Source: a virus. From it: DNA of 43,042 nt. The stretch is taken from positions 1 through 43,042 of IMG/VR virus record IMGVR_UViG_3300009413_000016. One strand, 5' to 3'. The notes under the pieces are model-generated. The model did no database searches and had not been told where the DNA came from. It saw only the letters and a program-made list of their open reading frames with translations. Positions within the stretch are counted from its first letter, which is position 1. The number at the start of each line of letters is the position of its first letter. Positions 7,617 through 34,735 of the stretch are shown piece by piece. Made by a program: the position numbers and the translations under genes.

Positions 7617-8096
7617 TTAAGCACCAGCAGTGGTGGAAGTTGAGTTAAGTACCAGAACGGCTACTTCACCCGCGGCGGCAGTAGTATCAAAATAACCGTC
7701 CAGTTGGGTTTCGCCTGCACCCGCCGCACCCGCGTCAATAACGCCAGTACCATTGGTATACTTGGCTAAATCGCCAGGTACGCAACCTGCAGGAACTGTT
7801 ACCCAGATTTTACCTTTTTCCATAATAGCCATGGACTCAGTATCTTCATACTGAATAAGGCCAGTGTTAGCCGCGCCTTCCATATCTAGCGCGCGAACGG
7901 TAATACCTTTAAAACCGGTTTCATCAACGGCTGGTTCGGCTTGATTATCCGCATCAGTACCGCGAGTAACGCCAATGCCGAAAGCGCATGGGCCGTTTTC
8001 ACATGAGCGAGAAGAAAGCACACGGTCAGACAAGTCAAAAATCATACCTGCAAGTGCTTTACGTAAATTACGAGTATAAGAAGTTTGAGCACTCAT
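7617..8096 (-). CDS. DUF2190-like head structural / decoration protein
   Basis: 159 aa, Gly/Ala-rich, in the conserved position between the scaffold and capsid genes. Confidence 0.55.
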   Translation of the reverse strand: MSAQTSYTRNLRKALAGMIFDLSDRVLSSRSCENGPCAFGIGVTRGTDADNQAEPAVDETGFKGITVRALDMEGAANTGLIQYEDTESMAIMEKGKIWVTVPAGCVPGDLAKYTNGTGVIDAGAAGAGETQLDGYFDTTAAAGEVAVLVLNSTSTTAGA

Positions 8097-9235
8097 TATT
8101 TTTTACCTCCTTTCCAGGCGTTACGATTACGCTCAATCATTTTCTGACGAGCATCGATTACAACATCTTTAGGACTATCGTCCTTGTTATGTTGCTGGTT
8201 TAATGCGTCAGTAACAGGGTTAGAAGCCGAACTGGTCGACACGAGAGCATCAAAGCGAGCACGAATATAATCGGCTGATACGCTTTCGATGTCAATATCA
8301 GGGCATGCATCGGCAATAACCTCTTTGCGGATTTGCTCACAATCTTTGTTAGTATATTGAAACTTCGGATTGATTTTCAGAGCGGCATCGCGTGTGGCAA
8401 TGCGATTACCGACCAAAGTGTCGAGCATTTCTGGAGTAGGAACTTTAGCTTTAGCGTCATCCAGTTTCGCTTGTAGCGAATCATTCTGCGCTTTGGCTTC
8501 TTTTTCCTTCTCTTCCATCTCGTCTTCTTTCTTTTTCAGCTCTTCTTCGGCGTCTTCCGCTTTCTTTTCCATGTCGTTGAGGCGCTGCTGCATCTTGGCT
8601 ACAGCTTGTGCCGCCTGGTCTGACATTTCAAAGTCGACGCCATCAATACTTACTAATTTACCCATAATAGGTTCCTCAGGTATTTTGGTTGGTGACTCAT
8701 CGGACACTTTACAAGCTGGGCCGCAGCGTCCATTATCGACTAGAGCAATATGATTGCCCCGTATATTTCTCTGGATGGCATCGTATGTATCACCCTCCGG
8801 AGTAACTCCTGATACCCACTCAATATCTGACTGGTATCCATTTGAAAGTTCTACTTTGCCTTGTTCGATTTTCTTGATAGCGTCGCTGGTAGTAACATAC
8901 AACATCGTTTTTGCGTATATGCCGTCGACGGTAACTTCGGGCCCAGAAAAACCGATTTGGTATTTTTTAGCATTGTCCGCATTTACTAATTCAGATGGAT
9001 GATTATCCGTCATAATTTTATTAGCAAATGAAGCAAGTGACTCATCAGAAAAGACTTCTTCTTTTGGGCGATATACCTTGATAATATCCATAGGATTGCG
9101 GTCTTCAAGACCCATTTCCATGGCTAAGTATTCCTGAATTCCGGTACGCGCTATTCTTGCGGGGACAATAAGGAAGCCTTCGTCAGTATATTTACGTTGG
9201 CTGTCAGTAAGGTTTATGCGGTCTTTGATGTACAT
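8096..9235 (-). CDS. capsid scaffolding protein (DUF2213-like), possibly with prohead protease function
   Basis: Motifs GFL..PARIARTGIQEY, ELSNGY and GNHIALV..GRCG, plus an acidic coiled coil (EEELKKKEDEMEEKEKE). Confidence 0.7.
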   Translation of the reverse strand: MYIKDRINLTDSQRKYTDEGFLIVPARIARTGIQEYLAMEMGLEDRNPMDIIKVYRPKEEVFSDESLASFANKIMTDNHPSELVNADNAKKYQIGFSGPEVTVDGIYAKTMLYVTTSDAIKKIEQGKVELSNGYQSDIEWVSGVTPEGDTYDAIQRNIRGNHIALVDNGRCGPACKVSDESPTKIPEEPIMGKLVSIDGVDFEMSDQAAQAVAKMQQRLNDMEKKAEDAEEELKKKEDEMEEKEKEAKAQNDSLQAKLDDAKAKVPTPEMLDTLVGNRIATRDAALKINPKFQYTNKDCEQIRKEVIADACPDIDIESVSADYIRARFDALVSTSSASNPVTDALNQQHNKDDSPKDVVIDARQKMIERNRNAWKGGKK

Positions 9236-25394: not shown

Positions 25395-27413
25395 ATGCAA
25401 TTACCCACCAGCTTTTTTGATATAGACTTCGAAACACGCTCAGAGCTCGATATTACACAAGTTGGGGCTAGAGCTTACGCCGAGCATCCATCTACTGAAA
25501 TACTAATGATAAGCTTTTCATTAAACGAAAAAAGCGTTTATAATTGGAATCCTTATTTTTCAAATCCAAAGGCATTAATAAAATTAAAAAATGGAATTCG
25601 CCAAGTAAAACGCGGTAAAAAAGTAATCCGCGCGCATAATGCCGAGTTCGAATACTGGATTTGGAATCTTGTAGGAACGCGGCAATTTGGTTGGCCAGAA
25701 TTTAGTATAGATAAATTTTACGATACGATGGTTGTATGCTGCATAGCCGGTTTTCCTGCCTCACTTGAAAACGCATCTGAAACTTTAGATTTAGTAGATA
25801 AGAAAAATAAAAGCGGTAAAGCGCTAATTAACTTCTTTTCAAAACCGTCTCGTAAAAAAGATGAAAAATGGAAAGACCCGATTGTCTATAAATCCAAATT
25901 TTTTGAATTCATTGAGTACTGTGACGATGACGTACGCGCTCAAATTGGTATTGCAAAAGCCTGTCCGCCAATGACGCTTCGGCAATATCAGGTCTACCAA
26001 TTAACCGAGCAGATGAATATACGTGGATTACCAATAGACGCGCCTATGGCGAGAGGAGCCCTGGAGCTCGTAGAGCAATACAAGGAGCGGGCTAATAGGC
26101 AAATACAAAAAATCACAAAGGGTGCGATAGAGAGTGCGACGCAAAACGTAGCGTTACAGAAATGGCTCAATGATAACGGCAGTCCGATACCGAATATGCA
26201 GGCGGCGACAATTGAGAAATATTTGAATAATCCAAAGACTCCTAAATTGGTAAAACAGGTACTTACTATTCGCTCTAATGTTTCCAAATCTTCTACGGCG
26301 AAATATAAAGCTGCGCTTACATATCTCACTTCCAAAAGCACTGTCCACGGGTTTATCAAAGCTTTCATCGCTAGAACAGGCCGATGGGGCGGACGCGGTC
26401 TACAAATTCAAAACTTCTCAAAGCCGGATAAAGACTTTCCGTATTGGTGCGATTATAATGTGCTAGCAAAAGCAATTGCCGACGTGGATATGTGGTTCAT
26501 AGAGGCTATTTACGCGGATGTCATGCAAGCTTTGAAAGCCGCTACACGCGCCATGATATATGCTCCTAAAGGTAAAAAGTTTATATGCGCGGATTACTCT
26601 CAAATTGAAGCGCGCATAGTTATGTGGCTTGCAGGCGATAAAGTCGGATTGAAAGATTTTGATGGAGAAGGTAAAATATACGAAAGTATGGCGGCTGATA
26701 TTTTTAGCGTATCTATATCCTCTATTAAGAAACCATCCTTTGAGCGCGATGTAGGTAAAGAGGTAGTTCTTGGGTGTGGTTTTGGCATGGGAGCAGACAA
26801 ATTCATTTTCCGATGCGTCGAGCAGCGCGGGCTTAAGGTAACAAGAGAAGTTGGTGTTAAAGGCGTTAAAGGATATCGTACTCGGTATAAACGTGTGCCA
26901 GAAGCTTGGAAAGAATGTGAGCGCGCAGCTATCTCTGCTATCAACAACTGCGGCGCAGTATATACCGCGTGTAATGGAAAATTAGCGTATAAAAAAGTCA
27001 GCCATTGGCTTATAGTACGACTACCATCTAGCCGTAAGCTGTATTATCCTTACGCAAAAGTGGTAATGGAAATAAATAACTTTGGCAAAGAGCAAGAGGT
27101 GATATACTATAAAAACTGGAATCAACAGGCTCCAGCAGGCCGCAAGTGGGAAGATGAACGCACTTGGGGCGGAACATTATTCCAGCATGGTGTTCAAGCT
27201 ACAGCGATGGACATCATGGCAAATGGAATGCTTAATGCAGAAAAGAAAGGATATCCGGCGCTATTCACTGTACACGATGAATCGTTGGCTATGGTTAACG
27301 AAGATTTTGGAACAGTAAAAGAGTATGAAGATATCTTATGCGAACTTGAACCCTGGGCGCAAGGCTTACCAATTGTTGCAGAAGGTTGGGAAGACACCCG
27401 GTATAAAAAGTAA
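25395..27413 (+). CDS. family A DNA polymerase with 3'-5' exonuclease domain
   Basis: Exo motifs FDIDFETRS and HNAEFE. Polymerase motifs ADYSQIEARI, RDVGKEVVLGCGFGMG and VHDES. Confidence 0.9.
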   Translation: MQLPTSFFDIDFETRSELDITQVGARAYAEHPSTEILMISFSLNEKSVYNWNPYFSNPKALIKLKNGIRQVKRGKKVIRAHNAEFEYWIWNLVGTRQFGWPEFSIDKFYDTMVVCCIAGFPASLENASETLDLVDKKNKSGKALINFFSKPSRKKDEKWKDPIVYKSKFFEFIEYCDDDVRAQIGIAKACPPMTLRQYQVYQLTEQMNIRGLPIDAPMARGALELVEQYKERANRQIQKITKGAIESATQNVALQKWLNDNGSPIPNMQAATIEKYLNNPKTPKLVKQVLTIRSNVSKSSTAKYKAALTYLTSKSTVHGFIKAFIARTGRWGGRGLQIQNFSKPDKDFPYWCDYNVLAKAIADVDMWFIEAIYADVMQALKAATRAMIYAPKGKKFICADYSQIEARIVMWLAGDKVGLKDFDGEGKIYESMAADIFSVSISSIKKPSFERDVGKEVVLGCGFGMGADKFIFRCVEQRGLKVTREVGVKGVKGYRTRYKRVPEAWKECERAAISAINNCGAVYTACNGKLAYKKVSHWLIVRLPSSRKLYYPYAKVVMEINNFGKEQEVIYYKNWNQQAPAGRKWEDERTWGGTLFQHGVQATAMDIMANGMLNAEKKGYPALFTVHDESLAMVNEDFGTVKEYEDILCELEPWAQGLPIVAEGWEDTRYKK

Positions 27414-27437: not shown

Positions 27438-27800
27438 ATGAGTGAAATTAAACACGAAGAAATGGTTGCTGTGCTAGCTAAGCCTGGTGATAAAGTAATG
27501 CAGGATTTGACGCCAAGTACTGCAGATTTGCTTCATATGGCCGTTGGTGTATCTGGTGAAGCGGGCGAGCTTTTAGACGCAGTGAAAAAAGCCGCAATTT
27601 ATGCCAAACCAATTGACCGCGAAAATGTTATCGAAGAGCTCGGTGATTTAGAGTTTTACATTGAAGGCATACGCCAAAATTTAGGTATTAGCCGCGAAGA
27701 AACGCTTCAGGCTAATATCAAAAAACTTAAGGTTCGATATGAAGGCCTTAAATACTCAAACCAAGCAGCGCAAGAGCGCGCTGACAAAGCCGGAGAATAA
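27438..27800 (+). CDS. MazG-like nucleoside triphosphate pyrophosphohydrolase
   Basis: GEAGELLDAVKK and EELGDLEFY motifs; 120 aa. Confidence 0.7.
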   Translation: MSEIKHEEMVAVLAKPGDKVMQDLTPSTADLLHMAVGVSGEAGELLDAVKKAAIYAKPIDRENVIEELGDLEFYIEGIRQNLGISREETLQANIKKLKVRYEGLKYSNQAAQERADKAGE

Positions 27801-30382: not shown

Positions 30383-30430
30383 ATGTACATTGGATAGAAA
30401 CATTGTACAATGGCTACATCATCGAGCAAA
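30383..30430 (+). promoter_or_regulatory. promoter P3: ATGTAC-N17-TACAAT plus conserved leader
   Basis: -35-like 30383-30388, -10 at 30406-30411. Leader GGCTACATCATCGAGCAA. Confidence 0.6.
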
Positions 30431-30460
30431 ACGTTATACACATATACACGAGGAAACGTC

Positions 30461-30979
30461 ATGTTAAACATCGCTAAAGTTACTGCTGAATCTATCAAAT
30501 CTCTGTCTACCAAGGAAATCGTTGAGCTGTACAACGCTACTCTTGCACAAGTCAATGCTTCTTCTGAAGCTGAACCCCGCACTCCAGTTAAGAAATTCCG
30601 TGACCGCACAACTGCAGAATCTCGCCTTCTTAAAATCAAACAAGAATGGCAAGATATCGCAGACGGTCATACTTCTGATGTTGAAGAAAAAGCTCCAGCC
30701 AAAAAGCTTGCTAAGAAAAAAATCAAAAAAGTAAAAAAATCTGAAGTTGGTAAGCCGAAAGGTTCTATCAAGAACGTAACAATTGGTTTAATCACTGAAG
30801 GCGCAGAAGATAAAGAAATCGTTGAGGAAGTTAAAGCACAATTTCCAGATTCTAAATTTGACTTCAGCCATGTATCTTGGTACCGTTCGACTCTATTCCG
30901 CGATGGTATCATAGGTCCTGAGCACGCGCCTCGCCGTTCCAAAGCGTATAAAACTTGGAAACAAAGCGAAGAAAAATAG
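30461..30979 (+). CDS. lysine-rich DNA-binding-like protein; its C-terminal domain is paralogous to the N-terminal domain of 31049-31420
   Basis: ORF track 30410-30979, trimmed to the ATG at 30461 (GAGGAA RBS). Central KAPAKKLAKKKIKKVKK. The C-terminal domain aligns by eye with the next gene. Confidence 0.65.
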   Translation: MLNIAKVTAESIKSLSTKEIVELYNATLAQVNASSEAEPRTPVKKFRDRTTAESRLLKIKQEWQDIADGHTSDVEEKAPAKKLAKKKIKKVKKSEVGKPKGSIKNVTIGLITEGAEDKEIVEEVKAQFPDSKFDFSHVSWYRSTLFRDGIIGPEHAPRRSKAYKTWKQSEEK

Positions 30980-31048: not shown

Positions 31049-31420
31049 ATGCCAGCACAAAAAGCAAAACCATCTGCCAAAAGTATCATTGAAACCGGTA
31101 TCGAAGGCGGTAAAACCGTAAAATTCATTTTAAGCCAAATTGCCAAGAAACTGCCCGATTCAAAAGCTGATGAATCTCATGTTCGTTTTTATGCGAATAA
31201 AATGGTTCGCGATGGTAAATTAGACGAAACCACGGCGCAAGAAAAATATGGATGTGGTAAGCGTGGGCGCAAACCTGCTGAAGGTAAAACAGCGGCTAAG
31301 AAAGCCCCAGCAAAATCTACTACCGCTAAAAAGGCTCCGGCAGCAAAAAAGGCTCCAGCCGCGAAAAAACCTGCGGCCAAAAAGACTACATCGAAGCGGA
31401 AAACTACTTCAGCGAAGTAA
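31049..31420 (+). CDS. histone H1-like protein (globular N-terminal domain plus AKKAPA-repeat tail)
   Basis: GAGGAA RBS. Tail reads AAKKAPAKSTTAKKAPAAKKAPAAKKPAAKKTTSKRK. Confidence 0.7.
   Translation: MPAQKAKPSAKSIIETGIEGGKTVKFILSQIAKKLPDSKADESHVRFYANKMVRDGKLDETTAQEKYGCGKRGRKPAEGKTAAKKAPAKSTTAKKAPAAKKAPAAKKPAAKKTTSKRKTTSAK
31345..31351 (+). promoter_or_regulatory. candidate -1 ribosomal slippery heptamer A_AAA_AAG, in the zero frame of 31049-31420
   Basis: Codons are GCA AAA AAG. This is the same heptamer as the E. coli dnaX frameshift site. The -1 frame is open from here to 31638. Confidence 0.35.
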
Positions 31421-31491: not shown

Positions 31492-31640
31492 GTATCTGAT
31501 GAAAGTTTTACTCTAAAAAATGTAATTGTAATAAATGCCAATTTATTTCCACATGGAGTAGTAAGAACAACATCTTCACTTGATAAGTTCAGGCAACTAT
31601 TTAATAAATTAATTGATAATCATGCTTGCAGGAGAATATA

Positions 31641-32444
31641 ATGTCCGAAAGAGAATTCGACCAGACTCAGCTTAAACTGGCTCAGTTTAAATACCAACCC
31701 CATAAAGATTACCTTGGCCACATTTTTCGTTGGGGCTTTGCTTCTAAATACGTAAATAAAAATGTGGCCGTGCTCGATGTCGGATGTGGTCAAGAAATGC
31801 CATTTGCTCGCTCATTAGGCGGTTCTAATCCGAATTCAGTTCCATCTAAATACGTTGGAGTTGACTTAAATAAAATTCCAAACCCGGTTACACGCAAGAA
31901 CTTTCATGTTGAAGACGAATTCAACTTCACTAAGAAATTCCGGACGTTGAAACGTCAGCATGGCCAATTTGATGTAATTGTTAATTTCGAAGTATTTGAA
32001 CATATGACCATGGGACATGCCCGTAAACTTCTCAAAGGTATGCGTTATTTACTTGCTGAAAATGGCGTTCTTATTTTTAGCACGCCCGTGTATTGCTCTA
32101 CGTATAAGCAAGCAAATAACCACATTAACGAAGTCACTAAAAAAGAAATGGAAGATGAACTCCATAAAGCTGGCTTCAAAATCATTAAGCAATTCGGCAC
32201 ATTCGCCAATATTAATGATATCAAAAAAGTTGCTGCTAAAGACGAGCTTGAGTCGCACAAAGCTATGGCTGAATTTTACGGTAACGAAATTTTGGGTTGC
32301 TACTTAAGCCCGAAATATCCTGAAGCATCTCGCAATGTTACGCACATCTGCGTGCGTGATGACGATGGTAGAAAAGAATGTACATTAAAAGATTCTATCG
32401 TTAAATTTACAGGCGAACCATACGGAAAATCGAGGGATAAATAA
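31641..32444 (+). CDS. class I SAM-dependent methyltransferase
   Basis: ORF track start is a TTG at 31626, trimmed to the ATG at 31641 (AGGAG RBS). Motif I VLDVGCGQE, then VIVNFEVFEHM and NGVLIFSTP. Confidence 0.75.
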   Translation: MSEREFDQTQLKLAQFKYQPHKDYLGHIFRWGFASKYVNKNVAVLDVGCGQEMPFARSLGGSNPNSVPSKYVGVDLNKIPNPVTRKNFHVEDEFNFTKKFRTLKRQHGQFDVIVNFEVFEHMTMGHARKLLKGMRYLLAENGVLIFSTPVYCSTYKQANNHINEVTKKEMEDELHKAGFKIIKQFGTFANINDIKKVAAKDELESHKAMAEFYGNEILGCYLSPKYPEASRNVTHICVRDDDGRKECTLKDSIVKFTGEPYGKSRDK

Positions 32445-33421
32445 TGTTTAATTTAGTAAAAAAGATGGTAACTGAGCTTCAAGGCCATCCGGCTCCAGAA
32501 AAGCCAATTGCTCTTAGTAATGACGAATACGAGTTTCGGCTCATTGCCTTTGAAGAAGAAATCAATGAATACTCGGATGGGCATGTTACTGACAATTTAG
32601 AAGAACAACTTGATGCTCTTGTAGATTTAGTTGTCTTCGCTATGGGAGCTGCGGCAATTCAAGGTTTCGACTTTGAAGCAGCTTTCAAACGCGTAATGAA
32701 TGCTAACTTGGATAAACGAGTTGGCATAACCAAACGCGGTCATGCTAATGACCTGATGAAGCCGGCTTATTGGCGCGCTCCGTATCTCGGTGATTTGATT
32801 GACAAGCAGACTGAGAAAAAAGGCATCATCATTCTTGAAGGCCCAGACGGTGCAGGTAAAACTACGTTGGCCGAGTTCCTTAAAAAAGAATATGGCGCTT
32901 ATGTGATGCATTCTACGTGGTCTCCAGAGCTTGAAGCTGATATGGAAAAATACATGGAAATCACTACGCGTATGGCTCTGGAAATTTCGCAGAATCAACT
33001 TGTGGTTCTTGACAGACATTGGCTAAGCGAGTTGGTCTATTCTGATGTATTTCGTGGCGGTCATAACCGCACGGGTATGTATTTTGAAAGCCATAAAGCT
33101 CTTATTGGCGGAATTCATACTAAGAATAAGCTCGTAATATGCTTGCCAGATGTAGAAAAAGCTAAATTACATTTTGCGCGTTTAAAAGAGCAGCGCGAAG
33201 AAATGTATAGTAATATAAACGGCGTTATTCATGCGTACGGCGCAATATGCGATAATTCATGTTCTCATCATTTTAAAAACGAAAATGAAGAATATCTGCA
33301 AATGTGCCTAAATGGAGGTTTAACTCGCCGCCCAGACCGATGCATCCGCTATAATTGGATGGAGCAAGGCCACGACATGAAACAATTCTGCGAAACATAT
33401 TTATTTGGAGATAATCAATGA
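32444..33421 (+). CDS. fusion protein: all-alpha MazG-like NTP pyrophosphohydrolase domain (N-terminal) plus thymidylate-kinase-like P-loop kinase (C-terminal)
   Basis: N-terminal EEINEY...EEQLDALVDLVVFAMG...RVMNANLDKR. C-terminal ILEGPDGAGKTTLAEFL and VVLDRHWLSELVY. TAATG overlap upstream and ATGA overlap downstream. Confidence 0.7.
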   Translation: MFNLVKKMVTELQGHPAPEKPIALSNDEYEFRLIAFEEEINEYSDGHVTDNLEEQLDALVDLVVFAMGAAAIQGFDFEAAFKRVMNANLDKRVGITKRGHANDLMKPAYWRAPYLGDLIDKQTEKKGIIILEGPDGAGKTTLAEFLKKEYGAYVMHSTWSPELEADMEKYMEITTRMALEISQNQLVVLDRHWLSELVYSDVFRGGHNRTGMYFESHKALIGGIHTKNKLVICLPDVEKAKLHFARLKEQREEMYSNINGVIHAYGAICDNSCSHHFKNENEEYLQMCLNGGLTRRPDRCIRYNWMEQGHDMKQFCETYLFGDNQ

Positions 33422-34239
33422 TTCGTTTTCAACGTACTACCACAGATACCTGGCTGAGTCTTCTAGATAGTATTATGACTCATGGCCGAAAAGTCAGTCC
33501 ACGGGGTCAAGATACTTTGGAAATGATTAGTTGCACTTCTGAAGTGGATATGAATACTCCAATCGTTTCAAGCTTCGTAAGAAATATTAATACCAAGTTT
33601 TTATTTGGTGAAGCATGGTGGATTCTGTCCGGCAGTAATCGCGTATCTGACATCACTCCTTATCTTAAAAACATTGCCCAGTTTAGCGATGACGGTATTA
33701 CATTTAATGGCGCTTACGGCCCTAAGGTTATTGACCAACTACCTTATGCGCTAAAATGCCTCGTTGATGATGAATGTAGCCGCCAAGCGGTTATTAGTAT
33801 CTGGCGCGAGAAACCGGCTCCGTCCAAAGATATTCCATGCACATTGTCACTGCAGTTCTTTATCAGAGATGGTAAACTCCACACTCAAGCGAACATGCGT
33901 TCTTCTGACGCATGGTTAGGTTGGGTTTATGACGTGTTCAACTTTTCTATGATTTCAGCTTGGTTAGCGATTGCACTTCGCAGGCATGAAAAATATAAAG
34001 CGTTGACCTTAGGCGAACTTTATTTAACCGCTGGCTCTCAGCATCTTTATATGCGAAATAAAGATAAAGCCGTTGAAGCACTCGACATCATTTTTGAAAA
34101 TCATGTAGACGTCAATCCAATTAAACTGTCATGGTATACTCATCCTGAAGAGCTAGTTACAGACTTACGTCTTGCGGCGAATGACACTCCAGGTTCTCGG
34201 ATTATTTCTATGGTTGAAAATATGCGGAGTCCAAAATAA
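33418..34239 (+). CDS. thymidylate synthase homologue, predicted deoxycytidylate C5-hydroxymethylase (or methylase)
   Basis: Catalytic Cys in IPCTLSLQFFIRDGKL. NMRSSDAWLGWVYDVFNF has Asp where ThyA has Asn177 (RSCDVFLGLPFNIASY). GSQHLY motif present. Confidence 0.7.
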   Translation: MIRFQRTTTDTWLSLLDSIMTHGRKVSPRGQDTLEMISCTSEVDMNTPIVSSFVRNINTKFLFGEAWWILSGSNRVSDITPYLKNIAQFSDDGITFNGAYGPKVIDQLPYALKCLVDDECSRQAVISIWREKPAPSKDIPCTLSLQFFIRDGKLHTQANMRSSDAWLGWVYDVFNFSMISAWLAIALRRHEKYKALTLGELYLTAGSQHLYMRNKDKAVEALDIIFENHVDVNPIKLSWYTHPEELVTDLRLAANDTPGSRIISMVENMRSPK

Positions 34240-34673
34240 TGCGTAAATCCAAGCTTCAATATTTTATTGACTTGGCGAAACTTGTGTCTTCTAGAGCCTC
34301 GTGTTCTAGAAGACAAGTGGGTTGCGTTTTAGTTGATGAACATGACCATGTACTTTCTACTGGATACAATGGTCCACCTAAAGGTATTCCTAATTGCACC
34401 GATAAGCCTTGCGCAGGAGCCCATCTTCCATCAGGTCAAGGGCTAGACGTTTGCCAAGCGGTACACGCGGAGATGAATGCGGTTATCCAATGTAAAGACG
34501 TGCACGCTATTACCAAAGCATACGTAACTACAGCGCCGTGTTTGCATTGCCTGAAAGTTTTGGCTAATACCTCTTGCCAAGAGATTTTATTCGTTGATGA
34601 TTACCCAGGAAGCGAGCGGTCAAAAGATATGTGGGAAATGATAGGCAGAAAATGGACGCGAGTTATACAATAA
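34239..34673 (+). CDS. dCMP deaminase
   Basis: Zinc motifs HAEMNAV and PCLHCLK; TAATG overlap with the upstream gene. Confidence 0.85.
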   Translation: MRKSKLQYFIDLAKLVSSRASCSRRQVGCVLVDEHDHVLSTGYNGPPKGIPNCTDKPCAGAHLPSGQGLDVCQAVHAEMNAVIQCKDVHAITKAYVTTAPCLHCLKVLANTSCQEILFVDDYPGSERSKDMWEMIGRKWTRVIQ

Positions 34674-34703: not shown

Positions 34704-34735
34704 CTAGCCTGTAGATGATAATACCTACAGGCTAG
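34704..34735. terminator. bidirectional terminator hairpin where the two genome arms converge
   Basis: Perfect 11-bp stem CTAGCCTGTAG / CTACAGGCTAG with a 10-nt loop, between convergent genes. Confidence 0.7.

Follow-up and report, generated by a model that had tools for sequence, protein, structure and literature searches.

Here, we describe a four-gene operon at positions 31641-34673 of the IMG/VR virus record IMGVR_UViG_3300009413_000016, of which the whole analyzed stretch (positions 1-43042; 43,042 nucleotides) is referred to as the window. The operon consists of four co-directional + strand open reading frames (ORFs) with stop/start overlaps at every junction, as seen in the ORF list and on the sequence ruler, where TAATG is read at 32442-32446, ATGA at 33418-33421, and TAATG at 34237-34241, in full agreement with what the first-pass annotation of this DNA had claimed. 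The first gene (31641..32444; 267 amino acids [aa]) encodes a class I S-adenosylmethionine (SAM)-dependent methyltransferase (MT) and is preceded by the ribosome-binding site AGGAGA at 31630-31635, 5 nucleotides (nt) 5' of the ATG. It is followed by a gene for a 325-aa fusion protein (32444-33421), which joins an N-terminal MazG-like (PRA-PH type) nucleoside triphosphate (NTP) pyrophosphohydrolase domain (residues ~1-118; 32444..32797) to a C-terminal P-loop nucleoside monophosphate (NMP) kinase domain of the thymidylate-kinase-like type (32798..33421). The third gene (33418..34239; 273 aa) encodes a thymidylate synthase (TS) homologue displaying the active-site signature of a deoxycytidine monophosphate (dCMP) 5-hydroxymethylase, and the fourth (34239..34673; 144 aa) encodes a dCMP deaminase. 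These four identities, first proposed from the letters and translations, are borne out by Pfam, PHROGs, and NCBIfam profile matches. We consider it likely that the operon forms a self-contained pathway acting at the nucleotide level, which replaces deoxycytidine (dC) with a C5-modified dC, in the first place 5-hydroxymethyl-dC.

Active site of the thymidylate synthase homologue and the proposed pathway

The TS homologue matches PF00303 (5e-18, 65.6 bits versus a cutoff of 24.3), and its best relative in the Protein Data Bank (PDB) is the CMP 5-hydroxymethylase MilA (3.6e-25), with true TS enzymes scoring ~1e-11. For residue-level comparison, it was aligned with Escherichia coli ThyA and T4 gp42; the two sequences used are considered valid because their numbering reproduces the literature positions C146/N177 and C148/D179/H216/Y218. 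The catalytic Cys is retained (C141, ThyA C146), and Asp172 aligns with ThyA Asn177 and T4 gp42 Asp179, which confirms the cytosine-type specificity residue named in the first-pass annotation. Asp138, inside a conserved KD[IV]PCT motif, occupies the ThyA L143 position, where it is linked to a hydroxymethyl product, while T142 and M160 stand at H147 and Q165 and are the same as in gp42. Asp164 corresponds to a retained ThyA D169, and S162/R122 (ThyA S167/R126) form the Ser/Arg pair of the deoxyribo type. Phosphate- and ribose-binding residues are also present, with R161, H209, Y211, E65, and Y100 aligning with ThyA R166, H207, Y209, E58, and Y94. Every residue separating T4 gp42 and MilA from true TS is found here (N177D, L143D, H147T, and Q165M). 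The Asp at the N177 position is seen in 6/6 aligned homologues from related cassettes, all of which share the other diagnostic residues of the window protein and keep the Asp at the D169 position.

These positions have been linked to substrate and product. N177D marks dCMP as the substrate, an acidic L143D/E correlates with a hydroxymethyl and not a methyl product through water access, and D169N marks flavin-dependent 5-hydroxy-dCMP synthases, with 9/9 D169N homologues tested in vivo yielding 5-hydroxycytosine (5hoC) (PMC13326640, 2026 NAR). In the MilA structure, Ala176/Lys133 confer a preference for ribo-CMP, and Ser/Arg a preference for the deoxyribo form (PMC5175136). On the basis of the gp42-identical residue pattern, the TS homologue reads as a dCMP 5-hydroxymethylase rather than a methylase or a 5-hydroxylase. 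The D169N mark of 5-hydroxy-dCMP synthases is absent from the window protein, which also departs from canonical ThyA, carrying Asp at both the 177 and 143 positions and reaching 50.8 bits with the best NCBIfam TS model (cutoff, 327).

The pyrophosphohydrolase domain matches PF01503 (5.3e-07, 30.4 bits versus a cutoff of 21.3), with the PRA-PH match covering residues 14-88, and phrog_671 (1.9e-18). Structure comparison bore out the fused architecture proposed earlier: in an AlphaFold model of the fusion (predicted local distance difference test [pLDDT], 92.4), Foldseek matched the N-terminal domain to DR2231 (TMt ~0.71; root mean square deviation, 2.7) and the C-terminal domain to YorR, thymidylate kinases, and PPK2, consistent with MazG-like and NMP kinase folds. 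The same comparison returned only generic class I matches for the MT. The kinase domain (residues 120-325) contains a P-loop/Thymidylate_kin region at 126-268 and matches phrog_761 ("thymidylate kinase"; 4.6e-19). Its P-loop GPDGAGKTT and the LDRH of its LDRHW motif are invariant in the homologue alignment, as are residues G133, P134, D135, G138, K139, D190, R191, and R204. The Pfam match to PF02223 is marginal and confined to the P-loop (28.1 versus 27), and the domain falls under the NCBIfam cutoff for dTMP kinase (33.8 versus 83.25). The deaminase matches PF00383 (2.5e-19, 69.5 bits) and phrog_174 (1.4e-35), contains the zinc motifs HAE (VHAEMNA) and PCxxC (APCLHC), and has as PDB relatives the dCMP deaminase of Streptococcus mutans (3.9e-17), T4 Cd, human DCTD, and the enzyme of cyanophage S-TIM5.

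The gene identities, the hydroxymethylase-type active site, the coupling of the genes by overlaps, and the conserved gene order are established. We infer that the MazG-like domain acts as a dCTPase and the Tmk-like domain as a kinase for modified dCMP, which leads to the following proposal. The MazG-like domain would hydrolyze dCTP to dCMP, thereby removing the competing canonical triphosphate and feeding the pathway. The TS homologue would then place a one-carbon unit from methylene-tetrahydrofolate on C5 of dCMP and hydrate it, giving 5-hydroxymethyl-dCMP, which the fused kinase would convert to the diphosphate and a host nucleoside diphosphate kinase to the triphosphate for incorporation by the family-A DNA polymerase of the phage. 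The deaminase may shunt surplus dCMP to dUMP to supply dTTP for a genome of ~40% G+C, as T4 Cd does. The most economical role for the MT, albeit a tentative one, would be tailoring of the new hydroxyl, for example by O-methylation to 5-methoxymethyl-dC. The T4-like logic of dCTPase, hydroxymethylase, deoxynucleoside monophosphate (dNMP) kinase, and dCMP deaminase recognized in the first-pass annotation is supported, with the counterparts of gp56 and gp1 being analogues and not orthologues.

Two side observations concern these domains. A stand-alone second MazG-like pyrophosphatase (27438-27800, + strand; phrog_229, 5e-41; PF03819) lies just after the polymerase gene, and together with the fusion domain it therefore brings the phage to two NTP pyrophosphohydrolases. 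In addition, some homologues of the kinase domain (P0182, P0192, and P0213) carry an extra match to the uracil-DNA-glycosylase superfamily (PF03167) in the same protein, an arrangement that may point to further cassettes for nucleotide or DNA modification with this kinase as their common element.

Spread of the cassette and probable DNA modification in its carriers

Relatives of the MT number 268 in IMG/VR, and from these we fetched 80 loci and searched the stored flanks for TS homologues. A TS homologue was present in the flank of 59/80 loci, and in 53/80 it lay on the MT strand, no more than 5 kb downstream of the MT, while all five functions in the order MT-MazG-kinase-TS-deaminase were recovered in 32/80. 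For comparison, any TS homologue occurs in ~2.8% of GenBank phage records. The gene set recurs syntenically in dozens of unrelated viral contigs, and the association is therefore beyond chance. GenBank carriers of the MT amount to four distinct phages, all of which (4/4) contain the cassette. The same five-gene order is seen in Stenotrophomonas phage AXL3 (a siphovirus), MW202621 (labeled Siphoviridae), and MW202510 (labeled Podoviridae). Relatives of the TS homologue in GenBank belong to the Pelagibacter phages HTVC119P/200P (56%), AXL3 (52%), Pseudoxanthomonas phage PW916, and Manatee Spring virome genomes. When the 3-kb region was searched as DNA at near identity, nothing was returned from 50,697 phage records, and relatives become visible at the protein level only.

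The composition of the cassette varies in an informative way. Other phages encode the pyrophosphohydrolase by a gene of its own at the corresponding point of the cassette; at one locus (L006), this point is occupied by a dUTPase_2-type enzyme in place of the PRA-PH type, a non-orthologous swap that supports a need for pyrophosphohydrolase activity. In Pelagibacter phage HTVC119P, the cassette is reduced to the kinase-like gene and the TS homologue; MT and deaminase are therefore regarded as add-ons to a minimal core. At locus L025 (7650-9908), a divergent ThyX-like protein (PF02511, 1.3e-10), and not a ThyA-like one, is encoded ~0.2 kb downstream of the MT homologue (ORF 7650-8786). We rejected ThyX-like proteins as a general alternative partner of the MT, this being the only fetched locus in which one adjoins it.

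Two cultured phages contain the cassette, AXL3 as gp27-gp31 (locus L002) and PW916 as ORF58-63, and both were published as encoding a dCMP-to-dTDP pathway. The DNA of AXL3 was cut by 2/37 enzymes, TasI (AATT) and Tru1I (TTAA), which recognize A/T-only sites, and none of the 35 enzymes whose sites contain G/C cut it, among them SmaI, HaeIII, NotI, and ApaI with G/C-only sites (PMC7504290). In that publication, the cassette is read as serving thymidylate synthesis and no identity is given to the modification; the PW916 publication uses the same annotation. The Asp residues at the N177 and L143 positions argue that the thymidylate annotation of both phages is wrong. A route in which the deaminase acts on 5-hydroxymethyl-dCMP to give 5-hydroxymethyluracil DNA was considered and rejected as the principal explanation; AXL3 DNA resists cutting at G/C-only sites.

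Support also comes from MetaGPA, in which co-occurrence of PF00303, PF01503, and PF00383 is a specific feature of contigs from an experimental enrichment for modified cytosine, and in which this core, joined to a carbamoyltransferase, yields 5-carbamoyloxymethyl-dC (PMC8670742). A text search of the MetaGPA supplementary files gave no match to PF13489, PF01503, or PF00303. Taking the AXL3 resistance and the MetaGPA co-occurrence together, the reading with the best support for the phage of the window, as an inference rather than a measurement, is that a 5-hydroxymethyl-derived base replaces cytosine. The first-pass annotation had proposed virion DNA with 5-hydroxymethyl-dC, 5-methyl-dC, or a derivative: the hydroxymethyl type is upheld by the TS residues, modified DNA is backed indirectly by the digests and by MetaGPA, and the methyl product becomes improbable.

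The methyltransferase and alternative readings

The MT matches the Pfam family Methyltransf_23 (PF13489; 2.2e-16, 60.4 bits), and its AlphaFold2 model (pLDDT, 94.6) matches class I methyltransferases. Motif I (VLDVGCGQ) and motif II (GVDLN) are invariant, as expected of class I SAM-dependent enzymes, and further family-invariant residues are D7, D23, H27, R30, G48-C49-G50, D75, E117, E120, and H121, as well as S147, P149, H161, E164, and N232. It is the best-conserved protein of the cassette, reaching up to 78% identity across contigs whose TS homologues are ~50 to 57% identical. Among 185,579 species genomes we found three full-length relatives, all on short contigs of metagenome-assembled genomes, which suggests that the family is essentially phage restricted. 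The MT matched none of the Pfam families of DNA N6/N4 or C5 methyltransferases, and its motif IV region reads NFEVFEH, unlike the (D/N/S)PP(Y/F/W) or PCQ/ENV motifs expected of such enzymes. Foldseek searches of the model against PDB and BFVD returned generic class I methyltransferases (TM ~0.5) and one uncharacterized phage homologue, offering no clue to the substrate.

Profile searches of PDB sequences ranked a Rickettsia lysine methyltransferase first, followed by UbiG (2.4e-8) and human HENMT1 (1.9e-7), with Hen1 entries lower. Residues E117, E120, and H121 align with the HENMT1 metal ligands E132, E135, and H136 (IELIEH), that is, with 3/4 ligands. The fourth ligand of HENMT1, His181, lies on a short helix after beta5 (PMC10781085). 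The alignment stops short of this residue, and the invariant H161, which follows beta5 in the MT, is assigned to it by position only. An 89-residue MT fragment searched against PDB with the aim of aligning H161 with Hen1 gave only noise, and the NCBIfam Hen1 model produced no MT match at E<=0.1. The metal-ligand-like set suggests metal-assisted O-methylation by the MT; E-x-x-E-H is, however, also present in UbiG and common among other class I methyltransferases.

Clustering of 75 unique MTs revealed a clade (L021-23, L027-32, and L035) that has no TS homologue nearby, retains all invariant residues, and has its MT gene just upstream of the terminase. We walked one of its contigs, IMGVR_UViG_3300042319_003013 (L179, L093, L092, L029, L185, and L186), in both directions over ~54 kb, with ~10 kb of the contig lying outside. 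The walk extended ~28 kb upstream to the contig start, with the tiling confirmed by BLAST, and ~26 kb downstream. No homologues of TS, ThyX, MazG, the kinase, or the deaminase and no replication genes were found in these ~54 kb of contiguous sequence. The stretch includes an ORF of 3,653 aa.

Two readings of the MT are given equal weight, and both are tentative. According to the first, the enzyme O-methylates the 5-hydroxymethyl group, on the nucleotide or on DNA, so that the virion carries 5-methoxymethyl-dC. Its boldest form, also a doubtful one, has a Hen1-like metal site and places 5-methoxymethylcytosine at all cytosines of this phage, AXL3, PW916, and some 200+ uncultured relatives. Translational coupling of the MT gene to that of the MazG-kinase fusion, a conservation higher than that of any other cassette protein, synteny in the 53/80 loci, confinement to phages, the E-x-x-E-H...H set, and the profile matches to UbiG and HENMT1, both O-methyltransferases, all favor such a role. 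Swappable tailoring has a precedent in the carbamoyltransferase attached to the same core (PMC8670742), and no glycosyltransferase was found among the window ORFs scanned, in agreement with the first-pass annotation. In the other direction, the clade lacking a TS homologue has an identical set of invariant residues, E-x-x-E-H recurs in enzymes such as UbiG, structural matches do not inform the substrate, and the MT is dispensable for the core, since phages with only kinase and TS exist (HTVC119P). In the literature searched, we found no report of natural 5-methoxymethyl-dC. It is because of the clade without a TS homologue that we hold O-methylation of the hydroxymethyl group no higher than a target outside the base pathway.

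According to the second reading, the MT acts outside the DNA base pathway and only shares its inheritance with the nucleotide module, which would leave plain 5-hydroxymethyl-dC in the virion. Possible targets, put forward with similar caution, are a Hen1-like 2'-O-methylation of RNA 3' ends or a ribose-containing nucleotide or signaling molecule. Such a target is favored by the lineage in which no TS homologue was detected and an MT with all invariant residues adjoins the terminase, as well as by the place of HENMT1 and Hen1 among the best PDB profile matches. One MT homologue is labeled "capping protein" in GenBank, and cap methyltransferases appear in the Foldseek list, in line with the same idea. 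However, the MT has no RNA-binding or other accessory domain, it does not match NCBIfam Hen1 at the threshold given above, and order and coupling are kept across myo-, sipho-, and podovirus backgrounds, which would be unusual for unrelated functions.

The remaining alternatives concern the TS homologue. It is improbable that it makes another C5 product, either the 5-methyl-dCMP of XP12 or the 5-hydroxy-dCMP of RB69 and DLP3: N177D is common to all these enzymes, and product assignment from a few residues is a correlation only, yet L143D goes with the hydroxymethyl product, and the nine D169N homologues tested in vivo all gave 5hoC, whereas an Asp is kept here. Ordinary thymidylate supply, in which the deaminase makes dUMP, the TS homologue dTMP, and the kinase dTDP with no modified base, follows the published annotation of AXL3 and PW916 and the Pfam/NCBIfam names "thymidylate synthase" and "dTMP kinase", but it is very hard to reconcile with Asp at both the uracil-specifying Asn177 position and Leu143, an NCBIfam TS equivalog score far under its cutoff (50.8 versus 327), the separate ThyX of AXL3, and the resistance of AXL3 DNA to SmaI, HaeIII, NotI, and ApaI.

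Several points weigh against cytosine replacement by a 5-hydroxymethyl-derived base with a tailoring MT. In the lineage without a TS homologue, the MT probably works without a phage hydroxymethylase. The modeled structure of the window MT finds only generic class I methyltransferases (TM ~0.5). Metal sites of the Hen1 type bind a vicinal diol, and there is none in 5-hydroxymethyl-dCMP. The AXL3 digests indicate that G or C is modified and do not tell the two bases apart, and the substrates preferred by the MazG-like domain and the kinase domain are not readable from sequence. Finally, GATC has 0 sites in the window versus 151 +/- 12 expected from dinucleotide-preserving shuffles, while all other 4-mers have observed/expected ratios of >=0.56 and the remaining palindromes with G/C show no avoidance (0.76-1.08). 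This loss is common to close relatives (L005, 0 versus 37 expected; L012, 1 versus 27; L015, 1 versus 55), and GATC is not depleted in other cassette carriers such as AXL3. The absence points to a GATC-directed host system, either MboI/DpnII-like or Dam combined with a methyl-dependent nuclease, in which case the putative cytosine modification alone would be no shield against every site-specific host system.

Genomic surroundings and comparison with known systems

The window belongs to a myovirus unlike T4, as the first-pass annotation recognized, with a tail sheath, a baseplate wedge, and a terminase nearest to those of Pseudomonas phages KPP23/RSP, and the same phage was recovered on 16 metagenomic contigs. 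Its replication genes encode a primase-helicase, an exonuclease, a Gp2.5-like single-stranded DNA-binding/annealing protein, the family-A DNA polymerase (25395-27413), and an SNF2-type helicase. Among the window ORFs scanned, we saw neither a ThyA nor a ThyX.

Downstream of the operon, a perfect 11-bp inverted repeat (CTAGCCTGTAG / CTACAGGCTAG, 10-nt loop; 34704..34735), read from the sequence, sits between the operon and convergent lysis-side genes that include an endolysin and a protein of unknown function. It is likely a transcript end or hairpin, and it was missed by the terminator scan because of the 8-nt loop limit and the lack of a T-run after it. In the operon region, counts from the promoter/terminator scan were not over the shuffled expectation. 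A sigma-70-like match at 31613-31642 (+ strand; TTGATA-18-TATAAT, 11/12), whose -10 box overlaps the MT start codon, is probably due to chance or else an internal promoter, since promoter-like matches in the region do not exceed the shuffled expectation.

Directly upstream of the operon, two adjoining genes (30410-30979 and 31049-31420, + strand) encode lysine-rich proteins that share a motif of ~35 aa (..PDSK.D.SHV..Y......RDG..). The PHROG families matched by the first all lack an assigned function. The second has a histone-H1/AlgP-like KKAPAAKK repeat tail at its end, and both may be DNA-binding proteins.

If the core pathway operates as proposed, T4-style total cytosine replacement is not limited to T-even-like jumbo myoviruses, and a mobile five-function cassette of ~3 kb would circulate among small viruses (myo-, sipho-, and podoviruses) of marine, freshwater, soil, and clinical-host origin. 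This would bear on restriction and CRISPR evasion, on phage therapy candidates such as AXL3, and on sequencing and cloning biases in viromes; as a result of the published thymidylate annotation, the signal of the cassette is currently hidden. Should the MT tailor the hydroxymethyl group, both the natural DNA base and the class of enzyme acting in DNA/nucleotide chemistry would be new, and 5-methoxymethyl-dC would be a base built from one-carbon donors only, with no sugar nucleotide. With two cassette-bearing phages, AXL3 and PW916, in culture, the question can be quickly settled.

Among known systems, the hydroxymethylcytosine pathway of T4 (gp56 dCTPase/dUTPase, gp42, gp1, and Cd) comprises the same four enzymatic roles. 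Its gp42 shares L143D, H147T, Q165M, and N177D with the TS homologue and keeps C146 and D169 at only 24% identity, and its Cd is homologous to the window deaminase. In contrast, the PRA-PH and Tmk/YorR-like counterparts of gp56 and gp1 are non-orthologous and fused, and the window genes form one translationally coupled operon with a SAM methyltransferase and no glucosyltransferase found. The 5-hydroxy-dCMP synthases of RB69, DLP3, and RL38JI likewise have N177D, with L143E, modify dCMP ahead of replication, and have a dNMP kinase as partner (PMC13326640), but they carry D169N and use flavin and O2, whereas the window protein keeps Asp164. In those phages, arabinose or hexoses are added by glycosyltransferases.

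MilA has Asp at the N177 and L143 positions, like the TS homologue. MilA and BcmA, from mildiomycin and bacimethrin biosynthesis, have Ala176/Lys133 and prefer ribo-CMP, as opposed to the deoxyribo-type Ser162/Arg122 of the window, and their context includes an N-glycosidase where the phage has a kinase and a deaminase. The bacimethrin cluster pairs its hydroxymethylase with a SAM methyltransferase that methylates the 5-hydroxymethylcytosine base. Hen1/HENMT1 share the class I fold with the MT, whose H161 follows beta5 as His181 does, but the similarity is weak (1.9e-7, no better than UbiG), and the window context is deoxynucleotide metabolism.

Closest in gene content are the MetaGPA module and the AXL3/PW916 cassette. 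The MetaGPA module (PMC8670742) has by family content the same PF00303, PF01503, and PF00383 core with a single tailoring enzyme attached, a carbamoyltransferase there and a class I methyltransferase here. The AXL3/PW916 cassette comprises five homologous functions in the same order (TS homologue, 52% identity; MT, ~34%), but these are siphoviruses of high-G+C hosts with separate pyrophosphohydrolase and kinase genes, and AXL3 has ThyX. The T4 logic is thus already known, and the core has been seen before, misannotated in AXL3 and PW916 and as a statistical association in MetaGPA. The novelty lies in recognizing a compact and widely mobile cassette with a dedicated phage-only MT, here with the pyrophosphohydrolase and the kinase fused into one protein.

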